Part shown: positions 34,994 to 36,410 of the stretch, piece after piece
Layout: every line of letters begins with the position of its first letter
Numbering within the stretch: position 1 is the stretch's first letter
Assembly: GCA_041746575.1 (NCBI GenBank)
Contig: JBGTGT010000091.1
Location: forward strand, 1 to 36,410
From: Microcystaceae cyanobacterium
GTDB taxonomy: Bacteria > Cyanobacteriota > Cyanobacteriia > Cyanobacteriales > Microcystaceae
Direction of reading: 5' to 3'
DNA length: 36,410 nt
Notes under the pieces: generated by a model
Told to the model about the DNA's origin: nothing
Databases searched by the model: none
Seen by the model: only the letters and a program-made list of their open reading frames with translations
Translations under genes and position numbers: made by a program

Positions 34994-35022
34994 TTGAATT
35001 ATCCCCTACAGGGGGATAGCAT
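34994..35022 (+). promoter_or_regulatory. Sigma70-type promoter with a CsoR/RcnR/InrS-type operator in the spacer
   Basis: TTGAAT (34994-34999) - 17 nt - TAGCAT (35017-35022); perfect 7-bp inverted repeat TATCCCC-TACAG-GGGGATA at 35000-35018. Confidence 0.65.
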
Positions 35023-35078
35023 TTTAGAATAGTAACAAGATTGAATTTTGAAGTTATCCCGATTGTTAGGACTCATCT

Positions 35079-36224
35079 ATGGTTGCCATTGAACAACACA
35101 TCCATTCCCCCTCGACTGATACCGCTAAAGATCGCGTGGCGGTTCTTTTAATGGGTTATGGCGAAGTCGAAAGTTACGAAGATTTTGCCCATTACAACGA
35201 GCAAGCCCTAAATTTACTCACTGCTAAGTTCGCGCCGGTTCCCACTTGGGTTTATCCCCCTCTTGCTAAGCTTTTAGCGATGTTCGATCTTCATGAATGG
35301 CAACATCAACATGATCACTTTATTTCCCCCCATAATGCCATTTTTGAACGGCAAAGAGCCAAAATTGAAGCAAAACTACAAGAAAAATGGGGCAATCGCA
35401 TTCAAGTTTTTAAAGCCTTTAATTTTTGTCAACCTTTTTTACCTGAACAAGTATTAGGCGAAATTCAGGCACAAGGATTCGATAAGGTCTTAATTTATCC
35501 CTTATTAGTCGTAGATTCGATCTTTACCAGTGGAATTGCCGTCGAACAAGTTAATCAGGCTTTCGGCACAATAACGAGCGATGAGCATTGGGTAAAGGGA
35601 CTGCGCTATATTCCGTCATTTTACAATCAATCTGATTATATTGACCTAATGGCGAACTTAGTTGAACAAAAAATTGCGCAGAGTCTCTCACAAACTTATT
35701 TACCCTCTCAGATTGGCATTATCTTAATGAATCATGGTTGTCCCCATGAAGCGAAAGGATTTACCTCTGGAATTGACGAAAGTCAGGCATTATATGAATT
35801 GGTGCGGGAAAAATTAATTCATCGCTATCCCTTAATTTCTGTCGGTTGGCTAAACCATCAAACGCCGTTAATTAAGTGGACACAACCCAACGCCGAATTG
35901 GCGGCCAAAAATTTAAGGGATTTAGGGGCCAAAGCACTGGTATTTATGCCCATCGGCTTTGCAACAGAAAATCATGAAACCTTGCTCGATGTTGAACATA
36001 TTATCGCCCATTTACGCCAGTCTAATCCTGACCTAGCGTGCATTCAGATGGAATGTGTCAACGATAATGATGAATTTTGTCAAATGGCAGCAAATTGGGC
36101 AGATCCTCAGATTGAAGCGTTATTAGCCGAACAAGGAGTCAGCGTTAATCCCAGTATTCCCATTTCTCATAATCATACCCATGATCATGATCATTCTCAT
36201 GGTAATGGACACCATCATCATTAA
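35079..36224 (+). CDS. Second ferrochelatase-family (class II chelatase) protein with poly-His tail and no CAB domain
   Basis: VAVLLMGYG, SPHN, IYPL, YIPSFYN, MNHG, W.QP and PIGFATENHETL.D align with the ferrochelatase fold; tail HNHTHDHDHSHGNGHHHH. Confidence 0.85.
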   Translation: MVAIEQHIHSPSTDTAKDRVAVLLMGYGEVESYEDFAHYNEQALNLLTAKFAPVPTWVYPPLAKLLAMFDLHEWQHQHDHFISPHNAIFERQRAKIEAKLQEKWGNRIQVFKAFNFCQPFLPEQVLGEIQAQGFDKVLIYPLLVVDSIFTSGIAVEQVNQAFGTITSDEHWVKGLRYIPSFYNQSDYIDLMANLVEQKIAQSLSQTYLPSQIGIILMNHGCPHEAKGFTSGIDESQALYELVREKLIHRYPLISVGWLNHQTPLIKWTQPNAELAAKNLRDLGAKALVFMPIGFATENHETLLDVEHIIAHLRQSNPDLACIQMECVNDNDEFCQMAANWADPQIEALLAEQGVSVNPSIPISHNHTHDHDHSHGNGHHHH

Positions 36225-36236
36225 GGTTTTTTAAGA

Positions 36237-36264
36237 GTAGGGACGTTTCAGGCAACGTCTCTAC
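36237..36264. repeat. REP-like GTAG palindrome (copy 2)
   Basis: GTAGGGACGTT-TCAGGC-AACGTCTCTAC, 12 nt after the stop codon. Confidence 0.65.
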
Positions 36265-36296
36265 AGCAGAAAATGCTTACTTTTTAGCTCACCGCA

Positions 36297-36410
36297 GAGA
36301 AGCCCCGCGCTGTACCCGATAGGGTCAGCGTCGGGATGAAAGGCGGGTCATCGGTACTCCGGCTTGGAAAGCCGAGGCTTCCTCTGACTTCGTCAATTGA
36401 GGGGTTCAAT
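36297..36410. mobile_element. Probable end of an IS200/IS605-family element (subterminal hairpins), truncated by the window edge
   Basis: GAGAAGC-CCCG-CGCTG-t-ACCC-gata-GGGT-CAGCG-t-CGGG-ATGAA bulged hairpin of the kind seen at cyanobacterial IS605/TnpB element ends, followed by two more hairpins; GC-rich relative to flanks; no ORF visible. Confidence 0.5.

Follow-up and report, generated by a model that had tools for sequence, protein, structure and literature searches.

The DNA analysed here, referred to as the window, is a stretch of 36,410 nucleotides from a Microcystaceae cyanobacterium (contig JBGTGT010000091.1 of assembly GCA_041746575.1), which carries a canonical ferrochelatase gene (hemH) and a second, ferrochelatase-like gene that we call hemH2. 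The features of interest in the window, and two that lie on other contigs of the same genome (G000), are as follows.

34994..34999, + strand: TTGAAT, named as a -35 element in the first-pass annotation; present, not conserved in orthologues
35000..35018, no strand assigned: putative InrS-type operator, TATCCCC-N5-GGGGATA; agrees with the nrsD oligonucleotide bound by InrS at 13 of 14 arm positions
35017..35022, + strand: candidate -10 hexamer TAGCAT, in the register that the nrsD -10 has relative to its operator
35020..35030, + strand: two alternative -10 registers, 35020-35025 and TAGAAT at 35025-35030
35079..36224, + strand: hemH2, 381-aa His-tailed ferrochelatase-like protein; H219, W267 and E300 conserved, tail in the last ~25 residues
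252..1439, - strand: canonical hemH, CAB-tailed; control gene that lacks the operator
G000:C47:25924-25944 (L255), strand not given: second putative operator, upstream of a DUF3120 gene; 26.1 bits
G000:C55:39992-40525 (L367), strand not given: small alpha/beta-hydrolase-like gene; FSAG, DGWG and SHD motifs conserved

The palindrome in the window reads TATCCCC-TACAG-GGGGATA, and this exact 7-5-7 repeat occurs in two copies in the 4,216,386-base genome, where about 0.008 copies are expected from base composition (GC 0.403). The layout originally described, with TTGAAT and TAGCAT separated by a 17-nt spacer, is present in full; the repeat does lie in the spacer, but its right arm also extends into the -10 hexamer and forms the initial two bases there, so that the spacer is not simply made of the repeat. 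A palindromic weight matrix, trained on 79 hemH2 loci with the window site as seed (one of 80 loci had no upstream DNA), yielded the consensus ATCCCC-N5-GGGGAT, and the window operator is its top match in the whole genome, at 26.5 bits. Among the upstream regions of 2763 open reading frames, seven score at least 14 bits and two at least 18 bits, and strong promoter sites are confined to hemH2 and the DUF3120 gene. The third-best match in the genome (C20:7323) lies just 3' of a gene end and is terminator-like, and a repeated element, probably an insertion-sequence terminus, has an end that weakly resembles the operator (15.6-16 bits) at many contig ends (e.g. C101:31 and C73:41).

The genome encodes a single CsoR-family protein (PF02583), at C32:31117-31467 on a contig other than that of the window, in keeping with the earlier statement that the window holds no repressor gene. 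Its best match in the PDB is InrS (5FMN, E 1.8e-47), and it carries the His, Cys, His, Cys ligands and a Glu at the position termed 'C', with a Pro before the first Cys and without the 'A' tyrosine. In the accessible text of Foster et al. (PMC4235346), a second-shell tyrosine before the first Cys is tied to copper sensing, and a Cu(I)-sensing CsoR regulon is rejected on this ground. The first-pass annotation had proposed a CsoR-family operator that responds to Ni, Cu or Co; the operator call is upheld and can be narrowed to the InrS type, and of the metals the nickel fingerprint of InrS is found, but the tyrosine of copper-sensing CsoR is not. According to the same source, Cu and Zn free InrS from DNA in vitro and transiently in vivo, and nrsD in adapted cells responds only to Ni. 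The matrix, which had no nrsD in its training set, also finds a site of 25.3 bits in another genome (G197), where it separates nrsC from nrsD at the end of an nrsRS-BACD-type cluster; this site is letter-for-letter the InrS-binding oligonucleotide of PMC3320959 and differs from the window site at one of the 14 arm bases.

The operator at nrsD of Synechocystis PCC 6803 (PMC3320959, PMC4235346) is the closest known counterpart, with 13 of 14 arm bases and the 5-nt spacer shared, an orthologous repressor, and a -10 whose overlap with the right arm corresponds to the register of the candidate TAGCAT at hemH2; according to the accessible part of PMC3320959, the mapped nrsD transcripts start 10 and 14 bp downstream of a TAGAAT hexamer overlapping the InrS site. 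At hemH2, the ATG (35079) lies 56 nt past the TAGCAT hexamer, and the transcription start is predicted at about 35029-35034. In 127 distinct orthologue sites, TAnnnT is found at offset 18 (the TAGCAT register) in 34, at offset 21, 3 nt further downstream and usually after TG, in 95, and at offset 26 (TAGAAT at 35025-35030 here) in 35. The commonest of these, offset 21, is degenerate in this genome (CATTTT), and all three registers overlap or abut the operator. The sigma70 -35 element that had been proposed is not supported, as it is not conserved and its third position is G in 20% of the 127 sites; a generic promoter scan made no call at the hemH2 promoter.

An InrS site has also been reported at the nik operon, and InrS is described as repressing nrsD and enhancing nik expression, in the accessible part of a review (PMC7055735); the same motif is found upstream of nikM/cbiM in several relatives. 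At these nikM/cbiM loci (L372-L391), a TTG (-35) directly follows the site in 15 of 15 site-like matches picked by eye from 30 loci, an arrangement that is likely to be of the activator type. The nik site, for which activation is reported, abuts the -35, unlike the site at hemH2, and it is not retained at nikM of this genome. The two arrangements, with the site followed by a -10 at hemH2 and by a TTG at nikM, fit the reported repression of nrsD and activation of nik, and since hemH2 has the nrsD type of arrangement, we infer that hemH2 is repressed.

Homologues of hemH2 are present in 34 of 41 relatives and in 82 genomes of the phylum (83 of 251 before one genome with a distant paralogue alone was taken out), and inrS is present in 76 of the 82 and in 35 of the 41 relatives. 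Of the 76 genomes with inrS, 68 have an operator of at least 14 bits within 700 nt of hemH2, compared with three of the seven in which inrS was not found (G002, 77% complete, was dropped from this count); genome counts include kin and are not independent, and Fisher values therefore overstate the significance. In held-out hemH2 promoters, from which sequences identical to training loci had been removed, a site within 300 nt is found in 57 of 71, as against one of 1800 shuffles, and none of 30 canonical hemH promoters exceeds 5 bits (maximum 4.5). The operator is conserved across families at varying distance from the hemH2 start codon. The first-pass annotation had said that its reading would fall if the motif were missing upstream of orthologues or a CsoR-family gene from the genome; motif conservation and the genome scan both came out in its favour, the latter with two upstream regions of at least 18 bits and one InrS orthologue.

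In family f11, where inrS was not found in four of four genomes, the best sites score 8.5, 4.9, -0.9 and -2.9. The invariant left-arm C is changed to G in only six loci (four distinct genomes) among 143 sites, and in Microcystis-type loci this change goes with inrS not being found (four of four distinct genomes); close Microcystis-type kin with an intact left arm have inrS in six of seven, and in one locus with a different arm change inrS is broken. These site losses are few independent events, with one in f11 and probably one for the C-to-G change. At the level of sequence, then, the operator is conserved with InrS and decays without it, with exceptions: eight of the 76 genomes with inrS score below 14 bits, three further loci that have inrS (L069, L103 and L135) lack a site, two of the mutated Microcystis-type sites still score 18, and G039 keeps a 14.9-bit site, inrS not being found there. 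hemH2 is itself kept in six of 82 genomes without inrS, and is therefore useful outside this control as well.

Our main reading, to which we give a probability of about 0.82, is that InrS represses hemH2 via the conserved operator and that Ni(II) or Co(II) relieves this repression. Metal-free InrS would bind the palindrome and block the -10 region of hemH2, and Ni(II), or likewise Co(II), would make it dissociate, allowing hemH2 to be induced. Binding and induction by InrS are demonstrated for nrsD only, and hemH2 is a target predicted from sequence; the nrsD target is an exporter, in contrast to the enzyme encoded by hemH2.

The description of hemH2 as a second ferrochelatase-like gene proved correct: its product matches PF00762 with 131.9 bits, the canonical hemH lies elsewhere in the window, and the two are the only ferrochelatase-family members in the genome. 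hemH2 scores 87.3 bits against the hemH equivalog TIGR00109, below the cut-off of 124.6, and 20.9 bits against the CbiX profile PF01903, below the cut-off of 22, and the genome has a separate CbiX. The predicted model (pLDDT 85.7, with a disordered His tail) matches ferrochelatases with TM 0.72-0.77 and CbiK, SirB and CbiX types with TM 0.44-0.49, and H219, W267 and E300 align with the ferrochelatase catalytic positions; as modelled, hemH2 is a ferrochelatase fold with the catalytic His and Glu kept. It thus has the fold and the catalytic His, Glu and Trp in common with PpfC/CpfC (HemH), but differs in its 16-18% identity to solved structures, the replacement of YQS by WLNH, the acidic/His-rich pocket helix, the His tail and its separate clade. 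The class II chelatases CbiX, CbiK, SirB and CfbA, some of which have His-rich tails, share the general class II architecture but are the much weaker structural match, and membership of hemH2 in the CbiX/CbiK/SirB group of cobalt-nickel chelatases is not supported, given the sub-threshold PF01903 score and a TM under 0.5.

A His tail is found in 150 of 150 distinct orthologues, with 6-22 His within the last 45 residues, and D70, H72, E73, H76, H78, C221, H260 and H299 are each at least 98% conserved, over an enzyme body that is 70-84% identical. The pocket helix (residues 66-82) is acidic and His-rich, and D70, E73 and H78 align at the positions of R115, K118 and Y123 of human ferrochelatase, in a register that is uncertain by about 2 and with Arg at 71 in some lineages. 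These human residues bind propionate, and their equivalents are kept in the canonical HemH of the window. The rebuilt helix argues against a plain HemH backup, one of the roles suggested in the first-pass annotation, which is weakened by this loss of the basic ferrochelatase residues. In a quick tree with long branches, the hemH2 clade stands apart from cyanobacterial HemH and beside an uncharacterised group (P0146, P0149, P0159, P0160, P0164, P0171, P0174 and P0181) with YGEP and WLNH motifs; five members of this sister clade have an unannotated C-terminal membrane domain, and P0181 has an N-terminal flavin oxidase domain (PF01593), presumably of the protoporphyrinogen-oxidase type. A further clade of paralogues, about 48% identical (L148-L151, four loci), keeps the catalytic Glu and has neither His tail nor operator; near three of these four loci is a gene that we take to encode a ZIP-like transporter.

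The DUF3120 gene is near-universal (40 of 41 relatives; 122 of 131 genomes), and a site of at least 13 bits precedes it in 32 of the 39 genomes that have inrS and hemH2 together, in none of five (four genera) with inrS but without hemH2, and in none of eight without inrS, in counts that leave out G002, G020, G026 and G032. nrsD was found in one of 41 relatives, and scans of the present genome found neither nrsD nor a match to a NiFe hydrogenase; an operator was looked for, and not found, at its nikM, at inrS itself and at the hydrolase gene where this is separated from hemH2. As the genome lacks both a NiFe hydrogenase match and a nikM site, the need for nickel control is not obvious. The conserved InrS regulon is likely, from these promoter matches, to consist of the hemH2 chelatase and DUF3120, which adjoin in seven of 164 loci (duplicates included). 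DUF3120 was removed from the TmAT clan, as stated in the accessible part of PMC12423673. Its fold is predicted with a pLDDT of 96 and has no clear match: the best Z is 6.7, no Foldseek match was found at E<=0.001, and Atlas returned its own family only. A match between DUF3120 and the membrane domain that some sister-clade chelatases carry, which would have been a clue from gene fusion, was rejected (probability 1.6%). DUF3120 promoters (L255, L271-L300, L316-L335) also contain a direct repeat that we liken to the RpaB HLR1 motif, in 45 of 53 at three mismatches or fewer versus 105 of 530 shuffles; it is likewise present in 26 of 30 canonical hemH promoters, but in 11 of 90 hemH2 promoters.

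The small hydrolase-like gene and hemH2 are divergently oriented neighbours in 40 of 164 loci (duplicates included), and the presence of the two agrees in 40 of 41 genomes, with the broken G020 copy counted as lost. In G020, hemH2 was not found, and DUF3120, the hydrolase and nikM all have stop codons, a pattern that may represent joint decay, or the genome may be eroded in general.

It is therefore a pigment-handling enzyme, and not the metal pump of the model strain, that excess nickel likely switches on, as far as can be read from promoters and gene content. As to the purpose of this regulation, we consider it somewhat short of an even chance that surplus Ni/Co is inserted into a non-heme, probably chlorophyll-derived ring. 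In such a scheme, the His tail of hemH2 would gather surplus Ni/Co, the active site would lock it into the ring, the co-inherited hydrolase would prepare the ring, and DUF3120, likely under the same InrS control, would perform a membrane step. A broader reading, which is tentative and on balance doubtful, holds that switching on this chelatase/hydrolase/DUF3120 module, for metallo-pigment detoxification by locking surplus Ni/Co into chlorophyll-derived rings, is the ancestral and widespread job of InrS, and that it was overlooked because nrsD was acquired, and the module lost, in the model strain.

Other purposes would be served by the same regulation. hemH2 might strip wrongly inserted Ni, Co, Cu or Zn from mis-metalated chlorophyll or porphyrin, with the His tail taking the ion: the acidic/His-rich helix 66-82 would suit a ring without free propionates, the hydrolase is co-inherited, ferrochelatases have reverse activity, and chlorophyll is subject to heavy-metal substitution. 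However, the insertion residues of hemH2 are intact and it is very difficult to remove the metal from Ni or Cu tetrapyrroles, which makes repair unlikely. That hemH2 is a metal-tolerant spare ferrochelatase for when Ni/Co products block HemH, as in the backup suggested at first, appears improbable; the fold and catalytic residues and the fusion of the sister-clade member P0181 to a flavin oxidase domain argue for it, but the hemH2 clade has lost basic pocket residues that the sister clade retains, the TIGR00109 score is below the hemH cut-off, and heme synthesis has no step for the hydrolase, a partner that looks obligate.

A different objection concerns the regulation itself: another regulator might act at the site, or InrS might be released mainly by thiol oxidation or by Cu/Zn pulses. 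This would accommodate the effects of Cu and Zn on InrS in vitro and transiently in vivo, the site-like sequence surviving in G039, and the response of Nostoc alr4616, a possible orthologue of hemH2, to low CO2 and peroxide; with a single CsoR-family gene in the genome, site decay that tracks inrS loss, and adapted cells responding to Ni alone at nrsD, we regard it as rather improbable. If Ni release of InrS is accepted, hemH2 could still be mainly a Ni/Co buffer or chaperone with incidental catalysis, in line with the tail in all 150 orthologues, the surface His cluster and the absence of an nrsD exporter from this genome, but a body identity of 70-84% and invariant catalytic residues exceed the needs of a buffer and leave little room for this option. 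There is only a very slight chance that the site is a fortuitous palindrome, a terminator-like hairpin (as C20:7323 and the 15-16-bit insertion-sequence end might suggest) or an element serving the divergent psaA (the genome carries psaAB and psbE), as it is conserved across families at varying distance from the start codon and psaA, rejected as a target, is adjacent in this genome alone among 170 loci.

Proteins that match hemH2 by description, namely His-rich, CAB-less cyanobacterial ferrochelatase-like proteins forming a second ferrochelatase with a poly-His C-terminus, appear in the accessible parts of PMC8529089 and PMC2853384 (NIES39_M01510), where the His-tailed clade is noted as unstudied, with no regulator, partners or function given. 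Nostoc alr4616, annotated as ferrochelatase-like, is reported, in the accessible parts of the two papers, to rise 8.6-fold at low CO2, as metal-efflux clusters also do (PMC7699953), and to increase when a pkn22 mutant is exposed to peroxide (PMC4518582), a lead towards further inputs if it is indeed the orthologue. Neither of the two Foster papers (PMC3320959, PMC4235346) uses the word 'ferrochelatase' in the text and supplementary material that could be searched, and no paper describing an InrS-ferrochelatase link was found in the open-access literature searched, in agreement with the first-pass annotation; within that literature, the regulator and operator are already known and hemH2 and DUF3120 are not named as targets.

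InrS is a benchmark metal sensor whose known targets come from one strain, of a lineage without hemH2. If its conserved regulon consists of an orphan chelatase and DUF3120, most larger-genome cyanobacteria would couple the sensing of nickel directly to the chemistry of tetrapyrroles. The operator supplies an inducing condition (Ni/Co or inrS deletion) for a clade that a 2021 survey called unstudied, so that hemH2 function becomes directly testable, and it provides a first functional handle on DUF3120. Downstream of hemH2, at the contig end, the last stretch of the window (36225-36410) is structured, repeat-like sequence and is possibly the end of a mobile element.
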